Assembly (NCBI RefSeq): GCF_044324875.1
Contig: NZ_CP172185.1
Length of the DNA stretch: 64,000 bases
Reading direction: 5' to 3' (one strand)
DNA from: Escherichia coli
GTDB taxonomy: Bacteria > Pseudomonadota > Gammaproteobacteria > Enterobacterales > Enterobacteriaceae
Under the pieces are notes generated by a model. It searched no databases. It worked only from the letters and a program-made list of their open reading frames with translations, and was not told the origin of the DNA. A program made the position numbers and the translations under genes. Within the stretch, counting starts at the first letter, position 1. Every line of letters starts with the position of its first letter. This document shows positions 24,080-46,152 of this stretch, piece by piece.

Positions 24080-24086
24080 AGAAACT

Positions 24087-24110: not shown

Positions 24111-24115
24111 TCATA

Positions 24116-24712: not shown

Positions 24713-24818
24713 GTTACAAAATACCCCTGAAAATAAGCACTTGCCAGGCGGCACCCACGCTATGACCGCAAACGAAATGTTTGCGGCTATGTTATGACGT
24801 TATTCGGATGCGTATGTG

Positions 24819-25274
24819 TTACTGACGACCAGAGTGACCAAAGCCGCCTTCACCGCGGTCGGTGGCGTCGAAATCTTCCACCAGATTAAATTCAGCCTGT
24901 ACTACCGGAACAAAAATCATCTGGGCGATGCGTTCACCAGGTTGAATGGTGAAGCTGTCCTGACCACGGTTCCACACGGAAATCATTAACTGGCCCTGAT
25001 AGTCGGAATCGATCAATCCTACCAGGTTACCAAGCACGATACCGTGCTTATGTCCCAATCCGGAGCGCGGCAGCATCATTGCCGCCAGTGAAGGATCGGC
25101 AATATGAATCGCCAGCCCGGTCGGAACCAGCGTAGTGTCACCCGGAGCCAGTTCTACGGCGTCGTCGAGACAGGCACGCAGGTCAAGTCCGGCAGAGCCA
25201 GAGGTGGCATAAGTCGGGAGCGGAAATTCCTTCCCAACGCGCGGGTCCAGAATCTTAACGTCGATTTTTTTCAT
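24819..25274 (-). CDS. dut: dUTP diphosphatase
   Basis: ORF track 24819-25277 (two tandem ATG); [14 protein letters not shown]. Confidence 0.9.
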
Positions 25275-26475: not shown

Positions 26476-26640
26476 GATGATTTTTCCTGTTTGGTGACAC
26501 CAGAAGTTGGCGATTTTATCACAATACTTTTGTTGTCGTGCCTTCACCTGAGAATCACTTTGCGAGGCGCTTTCCAGGATTGAAAACTGGCCGTCGATTT
26601 AACGGAACGGCTATGACAGGATGCGAGCACCACAAAGGAG

Positions 26641-27315
26641 GTGAAGGTGAAAAACAATTCACAGCTGTTGATGCCGCGCGAAAAAATGCTGAAGTTTGGT
26701 ATTAGCGCCTTAACGGATGTCGAGCTGCTGGCGCTATTTCTGCGTACCGGAACGCGCGGTAAAGATGTATTAACCCTGGCAAAAGAGATGCTGGAGAATT
26801 TCGGCTCTCTTTATGGCTTGTTAACCTCTGAATATGAACAATTTAGTGGCGTTCATGGAATTGGCGTGGCGAAATTTGCCCAGTTAAAGGGGATTGCTGA
26901 ACTGGCGCGGCGTTACTACAACGTGCGGATGCGTGAAGAAAGCCCTTTACTCAGCCCGGAGATGACGAGGGAATTTTTACAAAGCCAGCTCACGGGTGAG
27001 GAGCGGGAGATCTTTATGGTGATCTTTCTCGACTCCCAACACCGGGTTATAACGCATAGCCGCCTTTTTTCCGGCACGCTAAACCATGTTGAAGTCCATC
27101 CTCGGGAAATTATCCGCGAAGCGATAAAAATAAATGCCTCGGCGCTGATCCTTGCACATAATCACCCTTCGGGTTGTGCTGAACCCAGTAAAGCGGATAA
27201 ACTCATTACTGAACGGATAATAAAGAGTTGTCAGTTCATGGATTTACGCGTGCTCGACCATATCGTGATTGGGCGTGGAGAGTATGTTTCTTTTGCCGAA
27301 CGCGGCTGGATTTAA
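26641..27315 (+). CDS. yicR: UPF0758/RadC-like JAB-domain protein YicR
   Basis: 224-aa ORF (GTG start in track) with C-terminal HNHPSG JAMM-like motif; exact start uncertain. Confidence 0.8.
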
Positions 27316-27510
27316 CCCGCTATGCGCGATCCTTCGGGATCTTTGTCTGTTCGGGACTTGAGCACATCGCTGAGTCAGCGTATACTACGCCACCTTTGAG
27401 AATCTCGGGTTTGGCATTTGGGCCTGGCAATCGAGAGTTCACATAGAACTGCGATGACCGGGCTGTAAAGCCTGACGAGGCGCCAATACCCCATACGAAG
27501 CTCGAGCTAA

Positions 27511-27768
<258 letters not shown>

Positions 27769-27785
27769 GTACTTAGAGGAAATAA

Positions 27786-27956
<171 letters not shown>

Positions 27957-27980
27957 TTCTCGCTTTGATGTAACGAAAAA

Positions 27981-28002
27981 CCTCGCTCCGGCGGGGTTTT
28001 TT
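27981..28002 (+). terminator. rpmBG operon intrinsic terminator
   Basis: CCTCGC-TCCG-GCGGGG hairpin followed by TTTTTT. Confidence 0.55.
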
Positions 28003-28053
28003 GTTATCTGCTTACCCCCATATTGATTGCATCTGTTCATTCCTGGAGATGCT

Positions 28054-28863
28054 ATGCCTGAATTACCCGAAGTTGAAACCAGCCGTCGCGGCATAGAACC
28101 GCATCTCGTTGGTGCAACCATTCTTCATGCGGTGGTGCGCAACGGACGCTTGCGCTGGCCGGTTTCAGAAGAGATTTACCGATTAAGTGATCAACCAGTG
28201 CTTAGCGTGCAGCGGCGGGCTAAATATCTGCTGCTGGAGCTGCCGGAGGGCTGGATTATCATTCATTTGGGGATGTCTGGCAGCCTGCGCATCCTTCCAG
28301 AAGAATTTCCCCCTGAAAAGCATGACCATGTTGATTTGGTGATGAGCAACGGTAAAGTGCTGCGCTACACCGATCCGCGCCGCTTTGGTGCCTGGCTGTG
28401 GACCAAAGAGCTGGAAGGGCATAATGTGCTGGCCCATCTTGGACCGGAGCCGCTTAGCGACGATTTCAACGGTGAGTACCTGCATCAGAAGTGCGCGAAG
28501 AAAAAAACGGCGATTAAACCGTGGCTGATGGATAACAAGCTGGTGGTAGGCGTAGGGAATATCTATGCCAGCGAATCTCTGTTTGCGGCGGGGATCCATC
28601 CGGATCGGCTGGCGTCATCACTGTCGCTGGCAGAGTGTGAATTGTTAACTCAGGTGATTAAAGCGGTGTTGCTGCGTTCGATTGAGCAGGGCGGTACAAC
28701 GCTGAAAGATTTTCTGCAAAGCGACGGTAAACCGGGCTATTTCGCTCAAGAATTGCAGGTTTACGGGCGAAAAGGCGAGCCGTGTCGGGTGTGCGGTACG
28801 CCGATTGTGGCGACTAAACATGCGCAGCGGGCAACGTTTTATTGTCGGCAGTGCCAGAAGTAA
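28054..28863 (+). CDS. mutM: formamidopyrimidine-DNA glycosylase
   Basis: ORF track 28027-28863; start at [13 protein letters not shown] (N-terminal Pro after Met removal is catalytic); C-terminal zinc finger CxxC...CxxC. Confidence 0.9.
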
Positions 28864-28872
28864 TTCATGCGC

Positions 28873-28894
28873 GCCGGATGGCGTACCATCCGGC
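28873..28894. repeat. REP-like palindrome between convergent mutM and coaD
   Basis: GCCGGATGG-CGTA-CCATCCGGC perfect inverted repeat. Confidence 0.45.
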
Positions 28895-28901
28895 ATAAAC
28901 G

Positions 28902-30666
<1,765 letters not shown>

Positions 30667-31017
30667 AGTAAATAGCTGACTTATGGATGTGCTGGGGATT
30701 CTATGTATTTAGCTGTGGCTTTACCATTACTTTTCCCGTTTTTGACTTAAATAGCAATTTAGCCGCCAATTCTTGCTGAACATCTATACTTTTTTTGTAT
30801 TTTTATGCGTTTCATTGATTTCTGCAGTACGTGCAGGAAGGAATCGCAGAGCAACAGTGAAAGAATATGGTTGCTAATGATTTTATTTGATTGATTTCTT
30901 TATTGAAAATCAACAATGTGCTTAAAAATCATTCGGGTCGGATTGCCGCGAAAGAAGTGATACACTAGCGCGTCAATATCAGTGCGGTATCAGTATTCAG
31001 GTAGCTGTTGAGCCTGG

Positions 31018-31029
31018 GGCGGTAGCGTG
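31018..31029 (+). promoter_or_regulatory. ops element (RfaH recruitment site, part of JUMPstart) in waaQ operon leader
   Basis: exact GGCGGTAGCGTG in the waaA-waaQ divergent region, about 50 nt upstream of waaQ start. Confidence 0.7.
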
Positions 31030-31078
31030 CTTTTTCTGCTTCACCTTAATCGGATAATCTCAACAAAAAGAGTTACTT

Positions 31079-32137
31079 GTGGATAAGCCATTTCGAAGAA
31101 TTTTGCTCATTAAGATGCGTTTTCATGGGGATATGTTATTAACTACTCCCGTCATTAGTTCGCTGAAAAAAAATTACCCTGACGCAAAAATCGATGTGCT
31201 GCTTTATCAGGACACCATCCCGATCCTATCTGAAAATCCAGAGATTAACGCGCTCTACGGCATAAAAAATAAAAAAGCAAAAGCCGCAGAAAAAATTGCC
31301 AACTTTTTTCATCTCATCAAGGTATTACGTGCCAATAAGTATGACCTTATCGTTAATCTTACCGAACAATGGATGGTTGCTATACTGGTTCGCTTATTAA
31401 ATGCCCGTGTGAAAATTTCCCAGGATTATCATCATCGGCAGTCTGCTTTTTGGCGTAATAGTTTCACTCATTTGGTGCCGTTGCAGGGTGGAAATGTGGT
31501 GGAAAGTAACTTATCCGTGCTGACACCATTGGGACTTGATTCGTTGGTGAAGCAGACAACCATGAGTTACCCGCCTGCAAGCTGGAAACGTATGCGTCGC
31601 GAACTTGATCACGCTGGTGTTGGACAAAATTATGTGGTTATCCAACCTACGGCGCGGCAAATCTTCAAATGTTGGGACAACGCCAAGTTTTCCGCTGTGA
31701 TTGATGCCTTACATGCTCGTGGTTATGAAGTCGTTCTGACGTCCGGCCCAGATAAAGACGATCTGGCCTGCGTCAATGAAATTGCGCAGGGATGCCAGAC
31801 GCCACCAGTAACGGCGCTGGCTGGAAAGGTGACCTTCCCGGAACTTGGTGCGTTAATCGATCATGCGCAGCTGTTTATTGGCGTTGATTCCGCACCGGCG
31901 CATATTGCCGCTGCAGTTAATACGCCGCTGATATCGCTGTTTGGTGCGACAGACCATATTTTCTGGCGTCCATGGTCAAATAACATGATTCAATTCTGGG
32001 CGGGAGATTACCGGGAAATGCCAACGCGCGATCAGCGTGACCGAAATGAGATGTATCTTTCGGTTATTCCGGCGGCAGATGTCATTGCTGCTGTCGATAA
32101 ATTACTGCCCTCCTCCACGACAGGTACGTCGTTATGA
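31079..32137 (+). CDS. waaQ: LPS heptosyltransferase III
   Basis: 352-aa GT9-like ORF (GTG start in track), first gene after ops element; precise start uncertain. Confidence 0.8.
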   Translation: MDKPFRRILLIKMRFHGDMLLTTPVISSLKKNYPDAKIDVLLYQDTIPILSENPEINALYGIKNKKAKAAEKIANFFHLIKVLRANKYDLIVNLTEQWMVAILVRLLNARVKISQDYHHRQSAFWRNSFTHLVPLQGGNVVESNLSVLTPLGLDSLVKQTTMSYPPASWKRMRRELDHAGVGQNYVVIQPTARQIFKCWDNAKFSAVIDALHARGYEVVLTSGPDKDDLACVNEIAQGCQTPPVTALAGKVTFPELGALIDHAQLFIGVDSAPAHIAAAVNTPLISLFGATDHIFWRPWSNNMIQFWAGDYREMPTRDQRDRNEMYLSVIPAADVIAAVDKLLPSSTTGTSL

Positions 32138-33258
32138 TCGTTGCTTTTTGTTTATATAAATATTTTCCCTTTGGCGGTTTGCAGCGCGATTTCATGCGTA
32201 TTGCTCAGACAGTCGCCGCTCGAGGTCATCATGTTCGGGTTTATACCCAGTCGTGGGAAGGCGAATGCCCTGATGTATTTGAACTGATCAAAGTGCCGGT
32301 TAAATCGCATACCAATCACGGGCGCAATGCGGAGTATTTTGCCTGGGTGCAAAAACATTTACGCGAACATCCCGTCGATAGAGTCGTTGGATTCAACAAA
32401 ATGCCGGGGCTGGACGTTTATTATGCCGCTGATGTTTGTTATGCCGAGAAAGTAGCGCAGGAGAAAGGCTTTTTCTATCGCCTGACGTCACGTTATCGCC
32501 ATTATGCCGCCTTTGAGCGAGCAACCTTTGAACAGGGTAAGCCGACACAGCTGCTGATGCTGACAGATAAGCAAATCGCCGATTTCCAGAAACATTATCA
32601 GACTGAAGCGGAGCGTTTTCATATTCTGCCACCGGGGATTTACCCTGATCGTAAATATAGCCAGCAGCCAGCCAATAGCCGTGAAATCTTCCGTAAGAAG
32701 AATGGAATAACCGAACAGCAATATTTATTGTTGCAGGTCGGTTCAGACTTCACGCGTAAAGGTGTCGATCGCTCCATTGAAGCACTTGCTTCGTTACCGG
32801 ATTCGCTGCGCCACAACACATTGCTATATGTTGTTGGGCAGGATAAACCGCGAAAATTTGAGGCGCTGGCAGAAAAACGCGGCGTGCGCAGTAATGTTCA
32901 CTTCTTCTCGGGGCGCAATGATGTCTCGGAATTAATGGCGGCGGCGGATTTATTACTGCATCCTGCCTACCAGGAAGCGGCGGGAATTGTGCTGCTGGAA
33001 GCGATTACTGCAGGATTACCGGTACTAACAACTGCCGTTTGTGGCTATGCGCATTATATTGTCGACGCCAATTGCGGCGAGGCTATTGCTGAGCCATTCC
33101 GCCAGGAAACATTGAATGAGATTTTACGCAAAGCGTTAACGCAATTTTCATTGCGCCAGGCCTGGGCGGAAAATGCGCGACATTATGCTGATACACAAGA
33201 TTTGTACAGTCTGCCAGAGAAAGCGGCGGATATCATAACGGGTGGTCTGGATGGTTGA
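32134..33258 (+). CDS. waaG: LPS core glucosyltransferase I
   Basis: 374-aa ORF recognised as WaaG (GT4). Confidence 0.85.
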
Positions 33259-34048
33259 ACTTAAAGAGCCGTTTGCCACGTTATGGCGCGGAAAAGATCC
33301 TTTTGAGGAAGTTAAAACTTTGCAGGGTGAGGTATTTCGTGAACTGGAAACTCGCCGTACTCTGCGCTTTGAAATGGCGGGCAAAAGCTATTTTCTCAAA
33401 TGGCATCGCGGCACGACCCTGAAAGAGATAATCAAAAATTTACTCTCATTGCGGATGCCAGTATTAGGCGCAGACCGCGAATGGAATGCGATTCATCGAC
33501 TGCGGGATGTCGGCGTTGATACTATGTATGGGGTGGCATTCGGCGAAAAAGGCATTAATCCGCTGACCAGAACCTCGTTTATTATAACCGAAGATCTGAC
33601 ACCAACCATCAGTCTGGAAGATTACTGTGCTGACTGGGCGACTAACCCTCCAGATGTTCGCGTAAAGCGTATGCTTATTAAGCGTGTCGCGATGATGGTG
33701 CGCGATATGCATGCTGCGGGCATTAACCACCGTGACTGTTATATCTGTCATTTCCTGCTGCACTTGCCTTTTTCCGGTAAGGAAGAGGAGTTAAAAATTT
33801 CGGTAATTGACCTGCACCGGGCGCAGCTTCGCACGCGCGTTCCACGTCGTTGGCGCGATAAAGATCTTATTGGGCTTTATTTTTCTTCGATGAATATTGG
33901 CCTGACTCAGCGGGATATCTGGCGGTTTATGAAAGTGTATTTTGCCGCCCCGCTTAAAGACATTCTCAAGCAGGAACAAGGACTGCTGTCGCAAGCAGAA
34001 GCAAAAGCCACAAAAATCAGGGAAAGAACGATTAGAAAATCGTTGTAA
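33251..34048 (+). CDS. waaP: LPS core heptose(I) kinase
   Basis: ORF track 33242-34048; start at ATG 33251 ([14 protein letters not shown]) giving 265 aa; overlaps waaG end. Confidence 0.85.
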
Positions 34049-34090
34049 CCCGTAACTTATTTTTGCCAAAATTTTGGATACAGAATAAAT

Positions 34091-35098
34091 ATGTCTCAAC
34101 TCAATGATAGTGACATCATCCTTTTTGAGTATAACTTTCATTATCAAAATATAAGATCTAAAAATACTCTTGATATCGCATTTGGTATTGACAGAAATTT
34201 TCTTTTTGGATGTGGTGTAGCCATCGCATCTATTCTATTAAACAATAGCGAAATCTCTTGTGAATTTCATGTTTTCACAGATTATATCAGTGATAAAGAC
34301 AAGTTATATTTTTCCGATTTAGCAAAACAATATAATTCAAGAATTAATATTTATGTTATCAATTGTGATAAGCTGAAGTCATTACCAAGCACGAAAAACT
34401 GGACTTACGCTACATATTTTCGATTTATAATTGCAGATTATTTCTATAATAAACATGAAAAAATACTATACCTTGATGCAGATATTGCTTGCAAGGGTAG
34501 TATTAAAGAACTCTTAGATTATCAATTCTCTACTAATGAAATTGCCGCAGTTGTAGCTGAAAGAGATGTTGAATGGTGGCAGAATCGAGCCTCGGTATTA
34601 ACTACACCACAATTAGCTTCTGGATATTTCAATGCTGGTTTTTTGCTGATAAATATTGATGAGTGGAATCTAAATAACATTTCGTCAAAAGCTATTGAAA
34701 TGTTGCGTGACCCAGATTGGGTAAGTAAAATCACCCACCTTGATCAAGATGTACTGAATGTATTATTGAATGGTAAAGTGAAGTTTATTTCGGGGAAATA
34801 TAATACCCGATATAGTATTAACTATGAATTAAAAGACAAAGTTGATAATCCAGTCAATGATGACACCGTGTTTATACACTATGTGGGACCTACAAAACCC
34901 TGGCATGAGTGGGCTGATTATCCGGTGTCACGTAGTTTTTTGATCGCCAAAGCAGCTTCTCCGTGGTGTAAAGAAGATTTACTTAAACCTGTGAATAGCA
35001 ATCAGTATCGGTATTGTGCAAAACATAAATTTAAACAAAAGCATTATATGGCAGGCATTTTTAATTATTTAAAGTATTATAAAGAAAAATGCTTCTAA
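34091..35098 (+). CDS. waaI: LPS outer-core glycosyltransferase, GT8 family (WaaI-like)
   Basis: 335-aa AT-rich ORF with GT8 DxD motif (YLDADIACKG); position after waaP as in R3-type loci; symbol assigned by gene order, not verified. Confidence 0.55.
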   Translation: MSQLNDSDIILFEYNFHYQNIRSKNTLDIAFGIDRNFLFGCGVAIASILLNNSEISCEFHVFTDYISDKDKLYFSDLAKQYNSRINIYVINCDKLKSLPSTKNWTYATYFRFIIADYFYNKHEKILYLDADIACKGSIKELLDYQFSTNEIAAVVAERDVEWWQNRASVLTTPQLASGYFNAGFLLINIDEWNLNNISSKAIEMLRDPDWVSKITHLDQDVLNVLLNGKVKFISGKYNTRYSINYELKDKVDNPVNDDTVFIHYVGPTKPWHEWADYPVSRSFLIAKAASPWCKEDLLKPVNSNQYRYCAKHKFKQKHYMAGIFNYLKYYKEKCF

Positions 35099-35123
35099 AG
35101 ATTTAAGGTTAAAATAATTCATT

Positions 35124-35831
35124 ATGATATATAATAAAACGATAAATGGGTTGAAAGTTTTCATAAAAGATAATGATCCCTTTTATGAGCAAGTGCTGAA
35201 TGACTTTTTAACTTGCAGGGTTAAAACATTAAAAGTTTTTCGTTCTATTGATGATACTAAAGTCATTCTTATTGACACTGCTCGTGGACCTCTTGTACTT
35301 AAAGTTTATGCGCCAAAGCATAAAATGATCGAACGTTTCTTAAAATCTTGCGTAAAAAAAGATTATTATGAAAATTTAATTTATCAAACCGATCGGGTAC
35401 GTGGTGAAGGCATTCAATCAATTAATGACTATTTTTTGCTTGCTGAACGTAAAACATTAAATTTCGCGCATTATTATATTATGCTCATTGAGTATATTGA
35501 AGGTGTCGGGTTAAATGAGTATTTGGAAATTTCTGAAGATCTGAAGGAACAATTATCAGAATCGATAAAAGAGTTGCATCAGCATGGAATGGTGTCTGGC
35601 GATCCTCATAAAGGAAATTTTATAGTATCCGAAAAAGGTTTAAGACTAATTGACCTTTCAGGTAAAAAAACAACCGCAGTTTTAAAAGCAAAAGATCGCA
35701 TTGATCTTGAACGGCACTATAATATAAAAAATGAATTGAAAGACTTTGGCTATACATATCTCATATTCAAAAAGAAAATTAAAAAAGCAATCAGGGATGT
35801 AAAAGTAAAACTAGGATTGAAGAGCAAATAA
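35124..35831 (+). CDS. waaY: LPS core heptose(II) kinase WaaY-like
   Basis: 235-aa kinase-like ORF between two GT8 genes. Confidence 0.65.
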   Translation: MIYNKTINGLKVFIKDNDPFYEQVLNDFLTCRVKTLKVFRSIDDTKVILIDTARGPLVLKVYAPKHKMIERFLKSCVKKDYYENLIYQTDRVRGEGIQSINDYFLLAERKTLNFAHYYIMLIEYIEGVGLNEYLEISEDLKEQLSESIKELHQHGMVSGDPHKGNFIVSEKGLRLIDLSGKKTTAVLKAKDRIDLERHYNIKNELKDFGYTYLIFKKKIKKAIRDVKVKLGLKSK

Positions 35832-35855
35832 TGATTATGATGAAGGGTAATTAAA

Positions 35856-36869
35856 TTGGATTTTAAACATCTTACTCAATTTAAAGATATAATTGAACTG
35901 GACAAGCGCCCCGTTAAACTTGATGAACGGGAAACGTTTAATGTCTCATGGGGTATTGATGAGAACTACCAGGTTGGGGCTGCGATTTCAATTGCTTCAA
36001 TTCTTGAAAATAATAAACAAAACAAATTTACCTTTCACATAATCGCTGATTACTTAGACAAAGAGTATATTGAATTATTATCACAATTAGCAACGAAGTA
36101 TCAAACAGTAATTAAATTATATCATATTGATTCTGAGCCATTGAAGGCGCTACCTCAATCAAATATCTGGCCAGTATCTATTTATTATCGTTTGCTTTCA
36201 TTTGATTATTTTTCTGCGCGATTGGATTCATTATTATATCTTGATGCTGATATCGTCTGTAAGGGTTCATTGAACGAGTTAATAGCATTAGAGTTTAAAG
36301 ATGAATATGGGGCTGTGGTAATTGATGTAGATGCTATGCAAAGTAAAAGCGCTGAGCGTTTATGTAATGAGGATTTTAACGGTAGCTATTTTAACTCTGG
36401 TGTAATGTATATTAATTTACGGGAATGGTTACAACAAAGACTAACGGAGAAATTTTTTGATCTATTATCAGATGAGTCAATTATCAAAAAATTAAAGTAT
36501 CCGGATCAAGATATTTTAAACTTAATGTTTTTACATCATGCTAAAATATTACCGAGAAAATATAATTGTATTTATACTATAAAGTCAGAATTTGAAGAAA
36601 AAAATAGTGAATATTACACCCAGTTTATTAATGATGAAACTGTCTTCATACATTATACTGGTGTAACTAAGCCATGGCATGATTGGGCGGACTACGCATC
36701 TGCAGATTATTTTCGTAATATTTATAATATATCTCCATGGAGAAATATACCTTATAAAAAAGCTGTTAAAAAACATGAGTACAAAGAAAAATATAAACAC
36801 TTGCTTTACCAGAAAAAATTTCTCAATGGTGTTTTTACAGCAATTAAATATAATGTTATGAAAGGTTAA
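35856..36869 (+). CDS. waaJ: LPS outer-core glycosyltransferase, GT8 family (WaaJ-like)
   Basis: 337-aa AT-rich ORF with YLDADIVCKG motif; symbol by order. Confidence 0.55.
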   Translation: MDFKHLTQFKDIIELDKRPVKLDERETFNVSWGIDENYQVGAAISIASILENNKQNKFTFHIIADYLDKEYIELLSQLATKYQTVIKLYHIDSEPLKALPQSNIWPVSIYYRLLSFDYFSARLDSLLYLDADIVCKGSLNELIALEFKDEYGAVVIDVDAMQSKSAERLCNEDFNGSYFNSGVMYINLREWLQQRLTEKFFDLLSDESIIKKLKYPDQDILNLMFLHHAKILPRKYNCIYTIKSEFEEKNSEYYTQFINDETVFIHYTGVTKPWHDWADYASADYFRNIYNISPWRNIPYKKAVKKHEYKEKYKHLLYQKKFLNGVFTAIKYNVMKG

Positions 36870-36877
36870 TATTCGAG

Positions 36878-38020
36878 ATGGTTGATAAAATAATATTTAC
36901 AGTTACTCCTATTTTTTCAATTCCTCCCCGCGGAGCGGCCGCTGTTGAAACGTGGATGTATCAGGTTGCTCAGCGTACCAATTTCCCAAATCGCATTGTT
37001 TGTATCAAGAATCCAGGATACTCAAATTACACCTTTGTTAATGATAATTGTAGTATTCATAGGGTTGGATTCAGTCGCATATATAAGCGGTTATTTCAAA
37101 AATGGACAAGACTTGATCCTCTACCATATTCACAGAGAATATTGAATATTGCCCATGATTTTCCTATAACGAAAGAAAGTGTTATTGTAGTTCATAATAG
37201 CATGAAGCTATACACTCAAATTCGTAAGCGAGCTCCTCAGGCAAGAGTGGTTATTCATATGCATAATGCATTTGAACCAAAATTGCTTGAGCAAAATGTT
37301 AAAATGATAGTGCCTAGTTTATACTTGAAAAAGTATTACCAATCTTATTTAGCAAATGCAGATATTGAGATTGTACCAAATGGAATTGATTTAGAAACCT
37401 ATCAATCTACTTTTCAGCCGATCACTAGAAGCGAACTTAATATCTCCCCTGAAGAGAAAATTATTTTTTATGCTGGGCGTATCGTCCCTGACAAAGGCAT
37501 ATTACTGTTGATGCAATCATTCGAAAAATTGGCCGTTGCTCACAAAAATTTAAAATTAGTTGTGATTGGTGATTATACAGAAATGAGTAAAAGTGACAAA
37601 GGTGCATATCAACACAATGTCAGGGAAATTGCAAAACGTTTGAAGGATCGTTGCATTATGTTAGGAAGCATACCGCCTGAAAAGATGCATTGTTATTACC
37701 CACTGGCAGATTTAGTTGTCATTCCTTCCCAGTTCCAGGAACCATTTTGCATGGTGGCAATTGAAGCTATGGGGGCTGGTAAGCCTGTTTTAGTGAGTAC
37801 GCGTGGGGGGATGACGGAATTTGTCAAAGAAAATACTACGGGATTCCATTTAAAAGAACCTATGACTGCAGACTCCATAAGCAGCGATATTTTAAAAACG
37901 TTAGCGAATCCTGAATTAACAGCAGTTGCAAAGCAAGGTCAGGATTTTGTGTTTGATCACTACAGTTGGGATGGCGTAACTCAAAGATTCGAAGAGGTCA
38001 TTCATAATTGGTTTGAATAA
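36878..38020 (+). CDS. waaD: LPS outer-core glycosyltransferase, GT4-like (WaaD-like)
   Basis: 380-aa ORF with EX7E motif (EPFCMVAIE) of retaining GT-B glycosyltransferases; last gene of waaQ operon before convergent waaL; symbol tentative. Confidence 0.45.
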   Translation: MVDKIIFTVTPIFSIPPRGAAAVETWMYQVAQRTNFPNRIVCIKNPGYSNYTFVNDNCSIHRVGFSRIYKRLFQKWTRLDPLPYSQRILNIAHDFPITKESVIVVHNSMKLYTQIRKRAPQARVVIHMHNAFEPKLLEQNVKMIVPSLYLKKYYQSYLANADIEIVPNGIDLETYQSTFQPITRSELNISPEEKIIFYAGRIVPDKGILLLMQSFEKLAVAHKNLKLVVIGDYTEMSKSDKGAYQHNVREIAKRLKDRCIMLGSIPPEKMHCYYPLADLVVIPSQFQEPFCMVAIEAMGAGKPVLVSTRGGMTEFVKENTTGFHLKEPMTADSISSDILKTLANPELTAVAKQGQDFVFDHYSWDGVTQRFEEVIHNWFE

Positions 38021-38022
38021 AT

Positions 38023-38049
38023 AAAAAGGCCGCATTATGCAGCCTTTTT
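38023..38049. terminator. bidirectional terminator hairpin between convergent waaD-like gene and waaL
   Basis: AAAAAGGC-c-GCATtATGC-a-GCCTTTTT palindrome with A-run on one side and T-run on the other. Confidence 0.5.
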
Positions 38050-38056
38050 TATTTTT

Positions 38057-39265
38057 TTACTTGTTTTTCATTGCTAATAATAAGCCGGCGTAAACGCCTA
38101 ATAAATTTGGTTCAATTTGTTCTACGTTTCCACGGATAACAAAATAACCTATAAAAGATAGTAAGATTATATAATATGCATTATATGGTGAGCGGTTTTT
38201 ATTCTGGACGCCATTTTTTATACACTCTTTCAATATTGCGCAGTATAGCATCATAAGACTTATCAGCCCTAATAAACCAGTGCCAAACCAGATGAATAGC
38301 GCAAAATTATGTGGCCCTATCGATTGTCTAAAGGTCCATTCTGGATAATCAACGACACGTTTATTATAGACATCTTTATATGCAACGTTACCGTAACCGT
38401 AACCAATAACAGGATTTTCTAATATTAGATCGAGTGCGCTGCCTTGAGTACCATTTGCATAGCGATAAGAACTATTAGTTTGTTGAAGTTTATACGTTAG
38501 ATTTGCGGTCATCTCCTTATGTGTGAAAATAACCGATAATGCAATGATGGAAACCATTACTCCTACTAATAGTAACTTCCATTGTTTAAACATCAGAATC
38601 CATATTAATCCAATGACTAACACGGAAAGCCAGGCTCCTCTGGATAAAGTTCCTAATATCAGAAAAATAAAAATAACGCTTAGAACCGCAAAAGAAATGC
38701 GGTATTTTGCTGATTTGATAAGCCAGAGATTTAACAATGCAGGAAATAAAAAGACCATCGAGTCAGAAATGCTACGGTGTCTATAATCTGCAAATGGCAT
38801 TACCCCTTGTTGATAGTCCTTATAATAGGCAATCAATTCAGAAAAACAACGTAAGCCCAACGCACTTATAAATGAGAAGAAAACGATTTTTTCGACATCT
38901 TCTCTTTTCTCGTCTCTCAATATGACCGGTATTGCTATTGTGCATAGTAAAGTATTTTCAATGATAGCTTTGAAAATTTCCTTCATGCTAGCACCTGCAT
39001 CTGGGGATTGAAGAAGTGATAGCAATGCAGCAATAGTTAATATGGCAACACTACCAAAAAGACATGTTTTAAATAGTGAAAGATAGTGTTTTGGCCGTTT
39101 GCAGAGATAGACGATTGTCGTTATTGTCATAAGAATAACAATAAGATGTTTATACCTTGTAATCCCACCCAAAAAATAGGTGGTAATGAATAAGAATACG
39201 AGAGCTCTGTTCCAGTACGCTATCCAGTTTTTTTTCTCGAGAGAGAAAAATAATGTTGAGGTCAT
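38057..39265 (-). CDS. waaL: O-antigen ligase
   Basis: 402-aa multi-pass membrane ORF downstream of waaC; start overlaps waaC stop (ATGA). Confidence 0.75.
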   Translation of the reverse strand: MTSTLFFSLEKKNWIAYWNRALVFLFITTYFLGGITRYKHLIVILMTITTIVYLCKRPKHYLSLFKTCLFGSVAILTIAALLSLLQSPDAGASMKEIFKAIIENTLLCTIAIPVILRDEKREDVEKIVFFSFISALGLRCFSELIAYYKDYQQGVMPFADYRHRSISDSMVFLFPALLNLWLIKSAKYRISFAVLSVIFIFLILGTLSRGAWLSVLVIGLIWILMFKQWKLLLVGVMVSIIALSVIFTHKEMTANLTYKLQQTNSSYRYANGTQGSALDLILENPVIGYGYGNVAYKDVYNKRVVDYPEWTFRQSIGPHNFALFIWFGTGLLGLISLMMLYCAILKECIKNGVQNKNRSPYNAYYIILLSFIGYFVIRGNVEQIEPNLLGVYAGLLLAMKNK

Positions 39266-40254
39266 CTTATCTCCGATGTCAACTTATTGGTTATTATTTC
39301 AAGATTTAAATTTTGAAAAACGGTTTGAGCTGGCAAATCTGCAAGAGACATACTTGTAGAACGACACTCTACTTGATTCTTCCCATACCCGCCAATTAAT
39401 CCCGGATCGGTAGGTCCATAAACCGTGATATTGGGTCTATCCAGTGCCGCCGTTAAATGGCTTAACCCCGTATCCACCGACACTACAAATTTAGCCCCGG
39501 CCAGCACGCGGGCAACGCCTTCCAGACTCATCTTCGGCAATACTTCAACATAAGCAAATCCTTCCGCCAGTCGTTTCGCCCGTTCTTCCTCATGCGGCGC
39601 GCCCCACGGAAGTTTAATCCGTATTCCTGAATCTGCCAGTAAACCAATCAAATCTCGCCAGTGTTCTTCCGGCCAGTGTTTATCATCACGGGTCGTCGCA
39701 TGAAGAAATACGGCATATTCGCCAGCATCTGTAGGCAGGTTCGTCAGGAAATGCTGTGCAATAGCATAATCGCCCTGGGTTTGCGGTTTGCTATAGCCCA
39801 GACTTTTGGCAAACAGTTCGCGGGTGCGTTCTACGGCGTGCTGCTGTTTCGCAATATGATGCTTACGATTGTAAAACAAGCTTGCCAGTGGTTCGCGAGC
39901 GGTTTGCCAGTCCATTCCATGCTTTACGCCATGTGCCAGACGCGTCACCAGCGCCGCGCTTTTTACCAGCCCCTGAGCGTCGATAACTGCGTCATAGTTC
40001 TCTGCTTGTAGCGCTTCACGAAACGCTTTCCGTTCAGCTTTTATGGGGGCCGAGAACCAGGCTTTACGCCAGCGACGTATTGCCACAGGAATAACTCGCT
40101 CAACAGCGGCGTGCCAGGAAGGAATTTGTGCGAACCCTTCTTCCACCACCCAGTCAAACTTAATCCCTGGGATTGCCTGCTGGGCATCAGTGAGTGCGGG
40201 CAACGTATGGAGAACATCGCCCATCGACGATGTTTTAACGATCAAAACCCGCAT
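39262..40254 (-). CDS. waaC: LPS heptosyltransferase I
   Basis: MRVLIVKTSSMGDVLHTLPALTDA N-terminus; GT9. Confidence 0.85.
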   Translation of the reverse strand: MRVLIVKTSSMGDVLHTLPALTDAQQAIPGIKFDWVVEEGFAQIPSWHAAVERVIPVAIRRWRKAWFSAPIKAERKAFREALQAENYDAVIDAQGLVKSAALVTRLAHGVKHGMDWQTAREPLASLFYNRKHHIAKQQHAVERTRELFAKSLGYSKPQTQGDYAIAQHFLTNLPTDAGEYAVFLHATTRDDKHWPEEHWRDLIGLLADSGIRIKLPWGAPHEEERAKRLAEGFAYVEVLPKMSLEGVARVLAGAKFVVSVDTGLSHLTAALDRPNITVYGPTDPGLIGGYGKNQVECRSTSMSLADLPAQTVFQNLNLEIITNKLTSEIR

Positions 40255-40257
40255 CCG

Positions 40258-41304
40258 TCAGGCTTCCTCTTGTAACAATAGCGCGTTGAGTTCTTCCAGT
40301 GCGCGCTGGGGAGTAATGTCGATCAAGCTCTGGTGATAACCCTCCGCAGCGTCACCTTTACGCACTTTGTGATAGCCGGTAATCAGGCGGATCACGCGTG
40401 CTTTATGGGATAGCGGCGGTGTGAAGTCCGGGCTACTCGGACCATACAGGGCAACCAGCGGACGATTGAGCGCCGCCGCAACGTGCATCAGGCCAGAATC
40501 GTTAGTGACAATGGCTTTACAGGCTGCAATCAGGATAACCGCTTGATCAAGCTGTGTTTCCCCCGCCAGGTTCCGGCACCATGCCTGCTGCTCGGTATTC
40601 AAAGCGGCAAGAATCTCATTGCCCGCTTCATGATCTTTCGCCGAGCCAAACAGAACCACCTGATAACCTTCATCAATCAGCTGCTTTGCCAGTTCCGCAT
40701 AGTGGTAGTGTGGCCAGCGTTTTGCCGGACCAAACTCCGCACCCGGGCAAAAGCCAATCATCGGACGTTCTGATGAAAGCGAAAATTGATTACAGGTATA
40801 TGATTTTTCACCTTCGCTCACCTGCAACTGCGGCCATAACAATGGCTGCGGCAGATCTTGTGCTGTACGCATAATGCCTTTGTCATAGGCCAGCGCGACA
40901 TAGCGTTCCACCATTAGCGGCCAGGCTTCTTTATCGAGCACGCGTACATCGTTAAGTAAACCGTAGCGCATCTCGCCGCGCCAGCCGGTGCGATGAGGAA
41001 TACCCGCGAAGAAAGGCACTAATGCGGACTTGAAGGAGTTGGGTAAGACGTAGGCGCGGTCGTAGCGCTTTTCACGCAGACTATGACCCAGTTTGCGGCG
41101 TTCGCCGATTTCCAGCGCTCCGTGACCGAGAGGCATAGGGATAGCTTCGTTAACTTCCGGCATCCGCGATAATAATGGACGGCACCATGCCGGTGCCATC
41201 ACGTCGATTATCGCCTGGGGATAGCGCGCCTGGAGCGTGCGATAGAGACTTTGCGACATCATCATGTCGCCAACCCAAGACGGGCCGATCACCAGTATTT
41301 TCAT
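40258..41304 (-). CDS. waaF: LPS heptosyltransferase II
   Basis: 348-aa ORF MKILVIGPSWVGDMMMSQSLYRTL. Confidence 0.9.
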   Translation of the reverse strand: MKILVIGPSWVGDMMMSQSLYRTLQARYPQAIIDVMAPAWCRPLLSRMPEVNEAIPMPLGHGALEIGERRKLGHSLREKRYDRAYVLPNSFKSALVPFFAGIPHRTGWRGEMRYGLLNDVRVLDKEAWPLMVERYVALAYDKGIMRTAQDLPQPLLWPQLQVSEGEKSYTCNQFSLSSERPMIGFCPGAEFGPAKRWPHYHYAELAKQLIDEGYQVVLFGSAKDHEAGNEILAALNTEQQAWCRNLAGETQLDQAVILIAACKAIVTNDSGLMHVAAALNRPLVALYGPSSPDFTPPLSHKARVIRLITGYHKVRKGDAAEGYHQSLIDITPQRALEELNALLLQEEA

Positions 41305-41313
41305 GCAGAGCTC

Positions 41314-42246
41314 TTATGCGTCGCGATTCAGCCAGGCCATGTATTCCGTTACACCTTCAGCAACGGTTTTGAACGGTTTGTCGTAACCCGCCGCGCGCAG
41401 ATTTGTCAGATCAGCCTGAGTGAACGCCTGATAGCGGCCTTTCAGTTTATCCGGGAACGGAATGTATTCGATCTGCCCTTTCTTGTGATAAGCAAGCGTA
41501 GCATCTGCTACTGCCTGGAAGGATTCTGCACGACCGGTGCCGAGGTTGAAGATACCGGAAACGCCATTTTCCAGGAACCACAGGTTTACATCTGCTACGT
41601 CGCCCACATAGACGAAGTCACGTTTGAAGTTCTCGCTACCTTCAAACAGCTTCGGTGATTCACCGTTGTTAAGCTGAGTGTTGAGATGGAAAGCGACGCT
41701 CGCCATGCTACCTTTATGGCCTTCACGCGGTCCATAAACGTTGAAATAGCGGAAGCCAACAATCTGCGAGTTCGCTTCAGGCAGGATTTGGCGAACATAT
41801 TCATCAAACAGGAATTTTGAGTAACCGTAGACATTCAACGGTTTTTCATATTCGCGGGATTCAATAAAGTCGGAGGTGCGACCGCCGTAAGTGGCTGCAG
41901 AAGAAGCGTACAGGAACGGGATTTCGCGCTCAAGGCAGTAGTGCAGCAGCTCCTTGGAGTATTGATAGTTGTTATCCATCATATATTTGCCGTCCCACTC
42001 GGTGGTGGAAGAGCACGCGCCTTCGTGGAAAATCGCTTCGACATCGCCGAACTCTTCGCCAGCCATAATCTGGATCAGGAAGTCTTCCTTATCCATATAG
42101 TCCGCGATATCCAGATCCACCAGGTTCACAAACTTGGTGCCGTCTTTCAGGTTGTCCACCACCAGAATATCGGTGATGCCTTTGTCATTCAGGGCTTTAA
42201 CGATGTTGCTGCCGATAAAGCCCGCGCCGCCGGTAACGATGATCAT
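41314..42246 (-). CDS. hldD: ADP-L-glycero-D-manno-heptose 6-epimerase
   Basis: 310-aa [23 protein letters not shown] (NAD-binding Rossmann). Confidence 0.9.
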
Positions 42247-42534
42247 AACTGTAACCTTCGAATTATGGAGTCAGAGACAATCTCAGACACGAATGTCTGT
42301 AATCATACCATCACATCCGAATCCCTTCAGCCCTTTACATAGAGATGCAAGGATGCTAATTGCAACAAACTAGTTTGGGTTTTAGCCAGTCCTTCATGGC
42401 GGATGTTGGATTTGCACGTGAATAGTGCTTTAGTATCAATATTCCGATGTATGATAAATAACTGAAACATTTGAATGGATAATATACAGTATACATTCTG
42501 TTAATATTTATGATATAATTCTTTTTTTATATTA

Positions 42535-43407
42535 ATGGTCTTATTAGTAATGAAATCATCCACCACAATTATCACTGCATATTTTGACATTGGTAGAGGG
42601 GATTGGACTGCTAATAAAGGGTTCCGTGAAAAACTAGCTCGTTCAGTTGATGTTTATTTTAGTTACTTTGAGCGTCTGGCCGCACTTGAAAATGAGATGA
42701 TTATTTTCACTTCTCCCGATTTGAAATCAAGGGTTGAAGCGATTCGCAACGGAAAACCAACAACGGTTATCGTTATCGATATAAAAAAGAAATTTAGATA
42801 TATCAGAAGTCGTATCGAAAAAATTCAAAAAGATGAGTCGTTTACAAATAGACTTGAGCCTCGACAATTAAAAAACCCAGAGTACTGGTCACCAGAGTAT
42901 GTTTTGGTATGTAACCTTAAGGCCTATTTTGTAAATAAAGCTATCAACATGGGCTTAGTGAAAACGCCTCTTGTTGCGTGGATAGATTTTGGCTATTGCC
43001 GTAAGCCAAATGTAACTCGAGGATTGAAAATTTGGGATTTCCCATTTGATGAAAATAAGATGCATCTTTTCACTATAAAAAAAGGGCTTACTGTCACATC
43101 TCAACAACAGGCTTTTGATTTCATGATTGGCAATCATGTATATATTATTGGTGGCGCAATTGTTGGTTCACAGCATAAATGGAAAGAATTCTATAAATTA
43201 GTTCTGGAAAGTCAAAAAATAACCCTAAACAATAACATTGTGGACGATGACCAGGGCATCTTTGTCATGTGCTATTACAAACGTTCCGATCTCTTCAACC
43301 TAAACTATCTGGGGAGAGGAAAATGGTTCGATTTGTTTCGCTGCTTCAGGAGTAACACTTTAGGGGCAAAAATGCAGGCGCTGAGAATTTTCCTTTCAAG
43401 AAAATAG
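42535..43407 (+). CDS. htrL: HtrL/YibB-family protein
   Basis: 290-aa AT-rich ORF divergent from hldD; alternative start possible at 42550 (MKSSTTIITAYF). Confidence 0.7.
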   Translation: MVLLVMKSSTTIITAYFDIGRGDWTANKGFREKLARSVDVYFSYFERLAALENEMIIFTSPDLKSRVEAIRNGKPTTVIVIDIKKKFRYIRSRIEKIQKDESFTNRLEPRQLKNPEYWSPEYVLVCNLKAYFVNKAINMGLVKTPLVAWIDFGYCRKPNVTRGLKIWDFPFDENKMHLFTIKKGLTVTSQQQAFDFMIGNHVYIIGGAIVGSQHKWKEFYKLVLESQKITLNNNIVDDDQGIFVMCYYKRSDLFNLNYLGRGKWFDLFRCFRSNTLGAKMQALRIFLSRK

Positions 43408-43454
43408 GTTTCCCTCCATTAGTGGGTAGCGTTTTGATGCCAACTGAGATAGGA

Positions 43455-43486
43455 AAAAATGATGCTTTGGCATCATTTTTTCTTTT
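43455..43486 (+). terminator. htrL intrinsic terminator
   Basis: ATGATGC-TTTG-GCATCAT hairpin followed by T-rich run TTTTTTCTTTTT. Confidence 0.5.
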
Positions 43487-43682
43487 TATATCAATGCAGT
43501 AAAATCACTCATCATTATGCCCAGCCAAAACTGTACAGTTTTTCTACTATCTATAGGTGTTGAGAGACATCAAGATTCACGTTATTTATCCTGAATTTTG
43601 CAGAAGTGTTAACGCGTCATCTCGTCGCAACCTATAAGTTTGGGTAATATGTGCTGGAATTTGCCCTGTCTGGAGAATCGCA

Positions 43683-44879
43683 ATGCGTGGAGAATTTTAT
43701 CAGCAGTTAACCAACGATCTGGAAACCGCACGGGCGGAAGGGTTGTTTAAAGAAGAGCGCATTATTACGTCTGCGCAGCAAGCAGATATCACTGTGGCTG
43801 ATGGAAGCCACGTCATTAACTTTTGTGCCAATAACTATCTCGGACTGGCGAATCATCCGGATCTGATTGCGGCGGCAAAGGCGGGAATGGATTCTCACGG
43901 TTTCGGCATGGCTTCGGTGCGTTTTATTTGCGGCACTCAGGACAGCCATAAAGAGCTTGAACAAAAACTGGCGGCCTTCCTGGGGATGGAAGATGCGATT
44001 CTCTACTCTTCCTGCTTTGATGCTAACGGTGGCCTGTTTGAAACGCTGTTGGGCGCGGAAGACGCCATTATCTCCGACGCACTGAACCACGCGTCTATTA
44101 TTGATGGTGTGCGTCTGTGCAAAGCTAAACGCTATCGTTATGCCAACAACGATATGCAGGAGCTGGAAGCACGTCTGAAAGAAGCGCGTGAAGCCGGTGC
44201 GCGTCATGTGCTGATTGCCACCGATGGTGTGTTCTCGATGGACGGCGTGATTGCCAATCTGAAAGGCGTTTGCGATCTGGCAGATAAATATGATGCCCTG
44301 GTGATGGTAGATGACTCCCACGCGGTAGGTTTTGTCGGTGAAAACGGTCGTGGTTCCCATGAATACTGCGATGTGATGGGCCGGGTCGATATTATCACCG
44401 GCACGCTCGGTAAAGCGCTGGGCGGGGCTTCTGGTGGTTATACCGCGGCGCGCAAAGAAGTGGTTGAGTGGCTGCGCCAGCGTTCTCGTCCGTATCTGTT
44501 CTCCAACTCGCTGGCACCGGCCATTGTTGCCGCTTCCATCAAAGTGCTGGAGATGGTTGAAGCGGGTAGCGAGCTGCGTGACCGTCTCTGGGCGAACACG
44601 CGTCAGTTCCGTGAGCAAATGTCGGCGGCGGGCTTTACCCTAGCGGGAGCCGATCACGCCATTATTCCGGTCATGCTTGGTGATGCGGTAGTAGCGCAGA
44701 AATTTGCCCGTGAGCTGCAAAAAGAGGGCATTTACGTCACCGGTTTCTTCTATCCGGTCGTTCCGAAAGGTCAGGCGCGTATTCGTACCCAGATGTCTGC
44801 GGCGCATACCCCTGAGCAAATTACGCGTGCAGTAGAAGCATTCACGCGTATTGGTAAACAACTGGGCGTTATCGCCTGA
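43683..44879 (+). CDS. kbl: 2-amino-3-ketobutyrate CoA ligase (glycine C-acetyltransferase)
   Basis: 398-aa PLP-enzyme [23 protein letters not shown]. Confidence 0.9.
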
Positions 44880-44888
44880 GGATGTGAG

Positions 44889-45914
44889 ATGAAAGCGTTA
44901 TCCAAACTGAAAGCGGAAGAGGGCATCTGGATGACCGACGTTCCTGTACCGGAACTCGGGCATAACGATCTGCTGATTAAAATCCGTAAAACAGCCATCT
45001 GCGGGACTGACGTTCACATCTATAACTGGGATGAGTGGTCGCAAAAAACCATCCCGGTGCCGATGGTCGTGGGCCATGAATATGTCGGTGAAGTGGTAGG
45101 TATTGGTCAGGAAGTGAAAGGCTTCAAGATTGGCGATCGCGTTTCTGGCGAAGGCCATATCACCTGCGGTCACTGTCGCAACTGTCGTGGCGGTCGTACC
45201 CATCTGTGCCGCAACACGATCGGCGTCGGCGTTAACCGTCCGGGCTGCTTCGCCGAGTATCTGGTGATTCCGGCGTTCAACGCTTTCAAAATCCCTGACA
45301 ATATCTCCGATGATCTGGCTTCCATTTTTGATCCCTTCGGTAACGCCGTGCATACCGCGCTGTCGTTTGATCTGGTGGGCGAGGATGTGCTGGTCTCTGG
45401 TGCAGGCCCGATTGGTATTATGGCGGCGGCGGTGGCGAAACACGTTGGTGCACGTAACGTGGTGATTACTGATGTTAACGAATACCGCCTTGAGTTGGCG
45501 CGTAAAATGGGTGTCACCCGTGCGGTTAACGTCGCTAAAGAGAACCTCAATGATGTGATGGCAGAACTGGGCATGACCGAAGGCTTTGATGTCGGTCTGG
45601 AAATGTCCGGTGCGCCGCCAGCGTTTCGTACCATGCTCGACACCATGAACCACGGCGGTCGTATTGCGATGCTGGGTATTCCACCATCTGATATGTCTAT
45701 CGACTGGACCAAAGTGATCTTTAAAGGCTTGTTCATTAAAGGTATTTACGGTCGTGAGATGTTTGAAACCTGGTACAAGATGGCGGCGCTGATTCAGTCT
45801 GGCCTCGATCTCTCGCCGATCATTACCCATCGTTTCTCTATCGATGATTTCCAGAAGGGCTTTGACGCCATGCGTTCGGGCCAGTCCGGGAAAGTTATCC
45901 TGAGCTGGGATTAA
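44889..45914 (+). CDS. tdh: L-threonine 3-dehydrogenase
   Basis: 341-aa zinc-dependent alcohol dehydrogenase family ORF 10 nt after kbl. Confidence 0.9.
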
Positions 45915-45923
45915 CACAAACAA

Positions 45924-45946
45924 GGGCTGGTATTCCAGCCCTTTTT
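45924..45946 (+). terminator. kbl-tdh operon intrinsic terminator
   Basis: GGGCTGG-TATT-CCAGCCC hairpin followed by TTTTT. Confidence 0.6.
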
Positions 45947-46152
45947 CCTGAGGATAATCCGTTAAATATGTAAAATCCTGTCAGTGTAATAAAGAGTTCG
46001 TAATTGCGCTGATCTCTTATATAGCTGTTCTCATTATCTCTCTACCCTGAAGTGACTCTCTCACCTGTAAAAATAATATCTCACAGGCTTAATAGTTTCT
46101 TAATACCAAGCCTGTAAAACGTCAGGATAACTTCAGAGGTTGTCGGTAATTT

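Follow-up and report, generated by a model that had tools for sequence, protein, structure and literature searches.

The R3 core is one of the five long-established lipopolysaccharide (LPS) core types of Escherichia coli and can be assigned automatically with existing tools. The core type sets the residue to which the O-antigen is attached, and where LPS is rough or partly exposed, the core type determines by which phages, antibodies and predators it can be recognised. Since recognition and attachment are both governed by the core type, an R3 call is useful for annotation, e.g. for the choice of a phage or of a core-directed antibody. The core of O157:H7 strains is R3 (PMC12323348, PMC13293308) and has the structure Glc I-Gal I-Glc II-Glc III (PMC12323348). 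In a passage of PMC9927288 that cites Kaniuk 2004, WaaI is described as the UDP-galactose:(glucosyl)LPS alpha-1,3-galactosyltransferase that adds Gal I. Corresponding passages of PMC9927288 and PMC12323348, again citing Kaniuk 2004, state that WaaD adds the Glc III substituent to the glucose added by WaaJ.

Here, we analyzed a 64-kb stretch of E. coli DNA (the window) that contains a waa (LPS core) locus. It is virtually certain that the region at 34091-38020 represents the type-specific part of an intact R3-type E. coli waa locus. As an R3 locus it is already well known and brings nothing new for biology.

Organisation of the waa locus

The ORF list revealed four intact plus-strand ORFs in 34091-38020, encoding a GT8 protein, a WaaY kinase, a second GT8 protein and a GT4 protein. 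They are located downstream of waaQ-waaG-waaP. Beyond them lies waaL (38057-39265) in convergent orientation, the final gene of a gmhD-waaF-waaC-waaL operon. The following features were assigned:

30991-31029, plus strand: JUMPstart element with ops site for RfaH, in the waaQ leader (Rfam RF01707)
31079-32137, plus strand: waaQ, heptosyltransferase III, first gene of the central operon (NCBIfam PRK10422, 712 bits)
32134-33258, plus strand: waaG, glucosyltransferase I, Glc I onto Hep II (WaaG matches; annotated waaG in strain 042)
33251-34048, plus strand: waaP, Hep I kinase (NCBIfam PRK15123, 481 bits)
34091-35098, plus strand: waaI (RefSeq "waaO"), GT8, 335 aa (NCBIfam PRK15171, 616 bits, cutoff 461)
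35124-35831, plus strand: waaY, Hep II kinase, 235 aa (Pfam WaaY, 311 bits)
35856-36869, plus strand: waaJ, GT8, 337 aa, TTG start (98.2% to O157:H7 WaaJ)
36878-38020, plus strand: waaD, GT4, 380 aa (99.2% to O157:H7 WaaD)
38023-38049, no strand assigned: symmetric hairpin AAAAAGGCTGCATAATGCGGCCTTTTT between the convergent waaD and waaL (terminator scan)
38057-39265, minus strand: waaL, R3-specific O-antigen ligase, 402 aa (Pfam Wzy_C; 97.3% to O157:H7 WaaL)
39262-40254, minus strand: waaC, inner core, conserved (NCBIfam RfaC, 634 bits; 042 annotation)
40258-41304, minus strand: waaF, inner core, conserved (NCBIfam RfaF, 750 bits; 042 annotation)
41314-42246, minus strand: rfaD/gmhD, inner core, conserved (strain 042 annotation)

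Pfam detected Glyco_transf_8 together with Glyco_transf_8C in the products of waaI and waaJ, WaaY in the waaY product, Glycos_transf_1 (GT4) in WaaD and Wzy_C (O-antigen ligase) in WaaL. The NCBIfam models PRK15171, RfaY, PRK15484 and RfaL were concordant with these families. Thus ORFs, Pfam and NCBIfam all confirmed the original prediction, which had placed a GT8, a waaY-like kinase, a GT8, a GT4-like glycosyltransferase and a convergent waaL after waaQ-waaG-waaP. The TTG start of waaJ is the same as in the RefSeq annotation of strain 042. Over 34000-39500 the G+C content is 0.28-0.40, compared to about 0.5 in the flanks. The 64-kb window contains a single IS element, and its lldPRD genes are intact.

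The JUMPstart match scored 55.2 bits (gathering score 35, E 1.3e-10). The hairpin between waaD and waaL consists of a 12-pair stem bordered by runs of A and of T in the terminator scan, and it likely functions as a bidirectional terminator, as predicted from its sequence. Since the promoter scan returned 28 sites where 31.6 were expected from shuffled sequence, and hence no excess, we make no promoter claim.

Assignment to the R3 core type

We compared the variable proteins by BLASTP to a reference set comprising the loci of all five core types (K-12, R1, R2, R3, R4). Every reference locus was typed independently with a published primer scheme, and the controls of the five types were typed correctly. 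This is the comparison that had been proposed together with the R3 (waaI-waaY-waaJ-waaD) reading, and it supported that reading: all five best matches were to O157:H7 86-24 (WaaI 98.8%, WaaY 97.9%, WaaJ 98.2%, WaaD 99.2% and WaaL 97.3% identity), and no protein had its best match outside R3. The best non-R3 matches reached 58% for WaaI, 58% for WaaY, 44% for WaaJ, 57% for WaaD and 51% for WaaL. The five proteins aligned to their O157:H7 counterparts over the full length and ungapped, all ORFs being complete. Gene order and orientation are the same as in the annotated loci of O157:H7 86-24 and 042. In gene content, order, orientation and intactness the locus agrees with R3 reference strains, to which it is nearly identical.

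The typing primers gave the same answer. R3-R matches exactly at 35940-35962 in waaJ and R3-F at 36941-36960 in waaD, and the LPSTyper R3 primer pair yields a waaJ-waaD product of 1021 bp, the published size. Primers for R1, R2, R4 and K-12 had no match in the window at up to 3 mismatches. Ten primers and homology arms directed against F653, the R3 prototype, are colinear at the waaG, waaI, waaJ and waaD boundaries with 0-2 mismatches each; the agreement with F653 (0-2 mismatches per 80 nt) refers to these primers and arms. Three of the six short verification primers of 20-27 nt (waaJ_down_VR, waaI_up_VF and waaG_down_VR) did not match the window under the E-value cutoff applied. For the Shigella flexneri 2a primers, we counted 0-1 mismatches per 30 nt.

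Since more than one core type contains GT8, WaaY and GT4 proteins, the locus could be imagined to belong to K-12, R1, R2 or R4, or to be a hybrid that resembles R3 in family composition only. The nearest non-R3 relatives of WaaD (57%) and WaaL (51%) are both found in R2, and R2/K-12 hybrids exist (PMC13293308). However, each of the five proteins shares 97% identity or more with the R3 references and no more than 58% with any other type, and no typing primer of another type matches. When all reference proteins were searched by tblastn, waaS, waaB, waaZ, waaU and waaX had no match anywhere in the 64-kb window, and neither had waaL of K-12, R1 or R4. The remaining reference proteins matched only paralogous R3 genes (34-59%) in the window, which is also devoid of a waaK-type gene, waaT, waaW and waaV. 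Furthermore, the waaL gene of R1 and R4 has the orientation of the waaQ operon, whereas that of the window is convergent. The primer, BLASTP and tblastn results refute another core type or a hybrid, to which we assign a negligible probability, and none of our results speaks against the R3 genotype.

Proposed assembly of the core

The enzyme activities and the sugar structure of this R3 locus would, by analogy, be those described in the literature for O157:H7 and F653. The genes waaQ-G-P-I-Y-J-D would be transcribed from upstream of waaQ, and RfaH acting at JUMPstart/ops would sustain this long operon. WaaG is expected to act first and to transfer Glc I onto Hep II. WaaI would then add Gal I in alpha-1,3 linkage after Glc I, followed by WaaJ adding Glc II (alpha-1,2) and finally by WaaD adding the terminal Glc III (alpha-1,2). 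WaaY presumably phosphorylates Hep II. The convergent, R3-specific WaaL would join O-antigen to the finished core, with the WaaJ-added residue as the attachment site. Predicted from the genotype only, the R3 chemotype may be written as Glc III-(1,2)-Glc II-(1,2)-[GlcNAc-(1,3)]-Gal I-(1,3)-Glc I, and an R3-specific antibody would be expected to react with it.

The locus does not encode the GlcNAc decorations that belong to a full R3 core. As stated in 10.1101/536201, citing Kaniuk 2004, WabB modifies Hep III, while the outer-core GlcNAc transferase is reported there as unidentified. A role of WabB in adding the outer-core GlcNAc onto Gal I was dropped in view of its action on Hep III in that text. 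The wabB gene is plasmid-borne in EHEC, and near-identical copies are found in about 530 records, mostly EHEC plasmids. A search of the 64-kb window did not find it; WaaD showed only a generic GT4 similarity of 24%.

The name of WaaD is in conflict, being a GlcNAc transferase in RefSeq and NCBIfam and a glucosyltransferase in passages of papers citing Kaniuk 2004. The fourth gene (36878-38020) might accordingly encode a GlcNAc transferase that forms the GlcNAc branch of the outer core instead of adding the terminal glucose. WaaD matches NCBIfam PRK15484 "lipopolysaccharide N-acetylglucosaminyltransferase" over its full length with 766 bits, and it is 57% identical to the product of an R2 gene that carries the annotation LPS GlcNAc transferase and that we take as waaK. 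WaaD is also treated as a GlcNAc transferase in PMC3184986, where a Shigella waaD mutant is interpreted as lacking GlcNAc, and the gap that 10.1101/536201 reports for the outer-core enzyme would leave room for such an assignment. Nevertheless, we regard a GlcNAc transferase as unlikely. Addition of glucose (Glc III) by WaaD is stated in the passages of PMC9927288 and PMC12323348 that cite Kaniuk 2004, a biochemical study, and PRK15484 is a model of the kind "subfamily", not "equivalog", therefore its name asserts no shared substrate. While Glc III addition is our preferred reading, the neutral label "GT4-like glycosyltransferase" of the original prediction proved safer than the RefSeq "N-acetylglucosaminyltransferase", since the passages citing Kaniuk 2004 in PMC9927288 and PMC12323348 call WaaD a glucosyltransferase.

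Distribution, alleles and a possible recombination block

Of 5426 complete E. coli genomes, 1363 (25.1%) carry the whole variable 5.2-kb segment with an identity of 97% or more, a share that matches the published R3 frequency of 25.8%. These genomes include O157:H7, O111, O26 and O104:H4 strains. The R3 allele of the window is 100% identical to that of strain 042 and diverges by about 1.8% in nucleotides from the O157:H7 allele.

The R3 segment falls into two allele groups, with 177 genomes at least 99% identical to the window and 1186 at 95-99%, the latter mostly at about 98.2%. One could argue that the locus is R3 by descent, but that the substitutions of the 042-type allele alter transferase or ligase specificity and lead to a modified outer core. 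Among the five proteins, divergence is highest in WaaL (97.3% identity). However, every ORF is full length and the alignments are ungapped, and E. coli lineages ordinarily diverge by 1-3%, as do the flanking housekeeping genes. The primers for the F653 prototype also fit, at 0-2 mismatches per 80 nt, and in the typing survey we found no R3 subtypes reported. We therefore consider a modified outer core very improbable and retain a conventional R3 core. Given the amino acid divergence of 1-3% from the O157:H7 proteins, an equal specificity of the window proteins is inferred rather than demonstrated.

The mismatch profile revealed one further feature:

33566-47027, no strand assigned: block of 13.46 kb near-identical to strains 042 and ECA64, with the whole R3 cassette inside

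This block shows 4 differences to 042/ECA64 in 13.46 kb versus about 10 per kb on either side. It comprises the 3' part of waaP, waaI-Y-J-D, waaL-C-F, rfaD, yibB, kbl and tdh and extends into waaH. Its left junction lies inside waaP, between 33565 and 34048. The background of the window is about 1% (at least 0.8%) diverged from every one of the 5426 complete E. coli genomes. Since the 042-like block sits in this diverged background, import by homologous recombination is suggested. We lean, with some reserve, toward a reading in which the LPS core-type cassette was recently replaced by lateral transfer; R3 and its matched ligase would then have been imported with one crossover inside waaP. If true, this would be a tidy example of core cassettes moving between lineages, a process that is already recognised.

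Comparison with known core loci

K-12 shares with the window the three-operon architecture, the JUMPstart leader, a convergent waaL and the conserved waaC, waaF and gmhD. The original prediction had set the locus apart from K-12, and the order it quoted, waaS-B-O-J-Y-Z-U, indeed agrees with the MG1655 annotation and is unlike the window: seven genes follow waaP in K-12, but four here. The terminal transferase of K-12 is the GT9 heptosyltransferase WaaU, whereas the last one in the window is the GT4 protein WaaD. By BLASTP, no similarity was detected between WaaL of K-12 and WaaL of the window.

R1 and R2 had been rejected as well, which holds, as the annotated orders of both loci differ from that of the window. 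R1 and R4 share with the window the GT8 and WaaY families and WaaQ-G-P at about 99% protein identity; the window WaaQ is 99% identical to WaaQ of R1, R3 and R4, but 72% to that of K-12 and R2, and WaaG is 99.2-99.7% identical to WaaG of the R1, R3 and R4 loci. The order in R1 and R4, however, is waaO-T-Y-W, then waaV (GT2) or waaX (GT25), and then a co-directional waaL. Their outer-core proteins are at most 56% identical to those of the window, and the window WaaL had no BLASTP match to WaaL of R1 or R4.

The R2 and Salmonella-type loci contain the closest non-R3 relatives of waaD and waaL: the R2 WaaK is 57% identical to the window WaaD and the R2 WaaL 51% to the window WaaL. The R2 waaL is convergent, as is the R3 waaL of the window. 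R2 differs by an extra GT8 gene after waaP and by waaB and waaZ, all of which are absent from the window, and its WaaQ-G-P are only 72-88% identical to the window proteins.

The R3 loci of F653, O157:H7 and S. flexneri 2a carry the same set of genes as the window in the same order and orientation, waaQ-G-P-I-Y-J-D with the convergent waaL-C-F-gmhD. EHEC strains have in addition the plasmid-borne wabB, a gene that the window lacks. Within the locus, R3 of O157:H7 and the window differ in alleles only, their variable proteins being 97-99% identical.

Gene Layout of the Outer-Core Region

The original prediction had proposed an R3 core type from gene order and family membership. We could confirm the underlying order, since ORF scanning, Pfam and NCBIfam agree on GT8, WaaY kinase, GT8, GT4 and a convergent waaL.

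Genes of the core locus (waaQ, waaG and waaP from the ORF scan; families from Pfam and NCBIfam)
31079-32137: waaQ, upstream of the four outer-core ORFs
32134-33258: waaG, between waaQ and waaP
33251-34048: waaP, directly preceding the four outer-core ORFs
34091-35098: waaI, 335 aa, GT8 with GT8 C-terminal domain
35124-35831: waaY, 235 aa, WaaY kinase
35856-36869: waaJ, 337 aa, TTG start, second GT8
36878-38020: waaD, 380 aa, GT4 (Glycos_transf_1)
38057-39265, minus strand: waaL, 402 aa, Wzy_C-type O-antigen ligase

In the ORF scan waaI, waaY, waaJ and waaD are co-directional, and the convergent minus-strand waaL runs on into waaC, waaF and rfaD. The G+C content is 0.28-0.40 across 34000-39500 compared to ~0.5 in the flanks; low G+C is usual for the variable part of polysaccharide loci. 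A JUMPstart element carrying the RfaH ops site was found at 30991-31029, just upstream of waaQ, in agreement with the antitermination by RfaH that is established for this long operon. Between waaD and waaL lie 36 nt with a symmetric A-run/stem/T-run hairpin (38023-38049), which, judged from its sequence, probably terminates both convergent operons.

Assignment to the R3 Core Type

A reference locus was assembled for each core type and typed independently with the primers of Trofimova et al. 2025 (PMC13293308): O157:H7 86-24 (R3), MG1655 (K-12), 536 and MS 57-2 (R1), UMNF18 (R2) and EC9952 (R4). Each was recognised by its own primer pair alone. Of these pairs only the R3 one recognised the window: its primers match exactly at 35940-35962 and 36941-36960 and give a product of 1021 bp, the published size. 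Primers of the other core types found no match in the window, even when three mismatches were allowed.

BLASTP against all reference loci placed the five best matches in the R3 locus of O157:H7 (97.3-99.2%): WaaI 98.8% (next-best 58%), WaaY 97.9% (58%), WaaJ 98.2% (44%), WaaD 99.2% (57%, R2 WaaK) and WaaL 97.3% (51%, R2 WaaL). Since these O157:H7 alignments are all full length and ungapped, the genes are intact. The window WaaL gave no BLASTP match to the K-12, R1 or R4 ligases, and a tblastn search of the 64-kb window with all reference proteins recovered neither waaS, waaB, waaZ, waaU or waaX nor a waaL of foreign type. Ten primers or homology arms directed at the R3 prototype strain F653 (PMC9927288) are colinear at the waaG, waaI, waaJ and waaD boundaries with 0-2 mismatches each, and primers for Shigella flexneri 2a (PMC3184986) map at 0-1 mismatches per 30 nt. 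Of the short verification primers in PMC9927288, six in number, three had no match in the window at the E-value cutoff used. The R3 core type was supported by every test run, among them the BLASTP comparison proposed with the original prediction.

Distribution of the R3 Cassette

E. coli 042 matches region 31000-42300 with 99.7% identity and its variable part (34091-39265) with 100%. Of 5426 complete E. coli genomes, 1363 carry this variable part over its whole length with an identity of at least 97%; the rest lack it, and it behaves as an all-or-none cassette. Carriers include O157:H7 (86-24, OK1 and others), O111, O26 and O104:H4 strains. We partitioned the 5426 genomes by type-specific segments and set the shares against a published survey.

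Core types among 5426 complete genomes (published share in brackets)
R1: 1833 genomes, 33.8% (35.4%)
R3: 1363 genomes, 25.1% (25.8%)
K-12: 1032 genomes, 19.0% (18.4%)
R4: ~694 genomes, 12.8% (12.3%)
R2: ~500 genomes, 9.2% (8.2%)

R3 is second to R1 and therefore one of the species' two most frequent forms.

Core Assembly and Hep III Decoration

The NCBIfam equivalog identifies WaaY as the Hep II kinase. According to PMC9927288 and PMC12323348, both citing Kaniuk et al. 2004, WaaG places Glc I, WaaI adds Gal I onto Glc I, WaaJ adds Glc II, the glucosyltransferase WaaD puts a further glucose (Glc III) on Glc II, and WaaL attaches the O-antigen at Glc II. In RefSeq and NCBIfam the waaD product carries the name "lipopolysaccharide N-acetylglucosaminyltransferase" (the NCBIfam model, PRK15484, is of the "subfamily" kind), a view also taken in a Shigella paper (PMC3184986). 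This name is probably an over-transfer of the family name from WaaK, which is 57% identical to WaaD, and we consider glucosyltransferase very likely to be the true activity rather than GlcNAc transfer.

The full R3 chemotype needs functions encoded outside the locus too. According to 10.1101/536201, Hep III receives GlcNAc from WabB, whose gene lies on virulence plasmids of EHEC and Shigella, and the enzyme that attaches the outer-core GlcNAc to Gal I is reported as unidentified. Near-identical wabB (query pO157p80, at 37659-38765 of the pO157 sequence) was found in only ~530 records, mostly EHEC plasmids; strains without it have only a distant capU homologue, and nothing comparable to wabB occurs in the 64-kb window. 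Because of this restriction, the decoration of Hep III may be different in many R3 strains. An intact waaH (GT2; in K-12 the Hep III glucuronosyltransferase) adjoins the R3 locus (46153-47187). For O157:H7, 10.1101/536201 reports that Hep III carries GlcNAc from the plasmid-encoded WabB, and this would preclude the addition of GlcUA.

A Mosaic Block Around the Locus

On either flank of the locus the window differs from both 042 and ECA64 at ~10 positions per kb (~1%). Within 33566-47027 (13.46 kb) only 4 differences from these strains were found, against ~135 expected at the background rate. This block starts inside waaP and ends at the end of waaH, comprising the 3' part of waaP, the R3 cassette, waaL-C-F, rfaD, yibB, kbl and tdh. 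The simplest reading of these sequence comparisons is that a recombinational exchange (import or export) would have moved the whole core-type cassette and the ligase matched to it, one of the crossovers falling within waaP. No genome among the 5426 is more than 99.0-99.2% identical to the window background (1-18000, 26000-33600 and 47200-60400), which therefore represents a lineage without a close complete-genome representative among them.

The K-12-type outer-core cassette pairs with two very different waaQ-G-P backgrounds, 85% (MG1655) and 97.7% (Ecol_AZ159) identical to the window, consistent with cassette shuffling. Similarity of Ecol_AZ159 to the window stops at 33944, inside waaP. Among K-12-type genomes, waaZ-waaU is at least 99% identical to MG1655 in 458 and ~96% identical in 561.

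Several further features were observed. The yibB/htrL gene (42535-43407, Pfam HtrL_YibB, G+C ~0.35) sits between rfaD and kbl; it is present in those R3 and K-12 loci that were compared and is missing from the R1/R4 loci of 536, MS 57-2 and EC9952, which do not align to the window across 42294-43579. An IS3-family element (~54525-55956; orfA 54567-55097 with HTH domains, orfB 55202-55924 with rve integrase domains) lies between cysE and trmL, an insertion common to ECA64 (annotated IS1397-like there) and missing in 042. At the yicC-dinD site (~21666-21671), 042 carries a ~20-kb island (8135-27750 of the 042 segment compared) that encodes a tyrosine integrase and contains phage-like genes; the window and ECA64 lack this island. 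The 1095-aa minus-strand ORF at 60442-63729, with the region onward to 64000, corresponds to a gene annotated as YadA-like family protein in 042 and ECA64; its alignments to 042 are broken and overlapping (80-91%) and therefore point to internal-repeat variation.

Comparison With Known Core Loci

In the R1 and R4 loci waaL comes after waaV or waaX and is read in the same direction as the waaQ operon, while waaL of the window is convergent, and hence its orientation is diagnostic too. The locus is a textbook R3 waa locus of a kind already known, common and assignable with existing tools.
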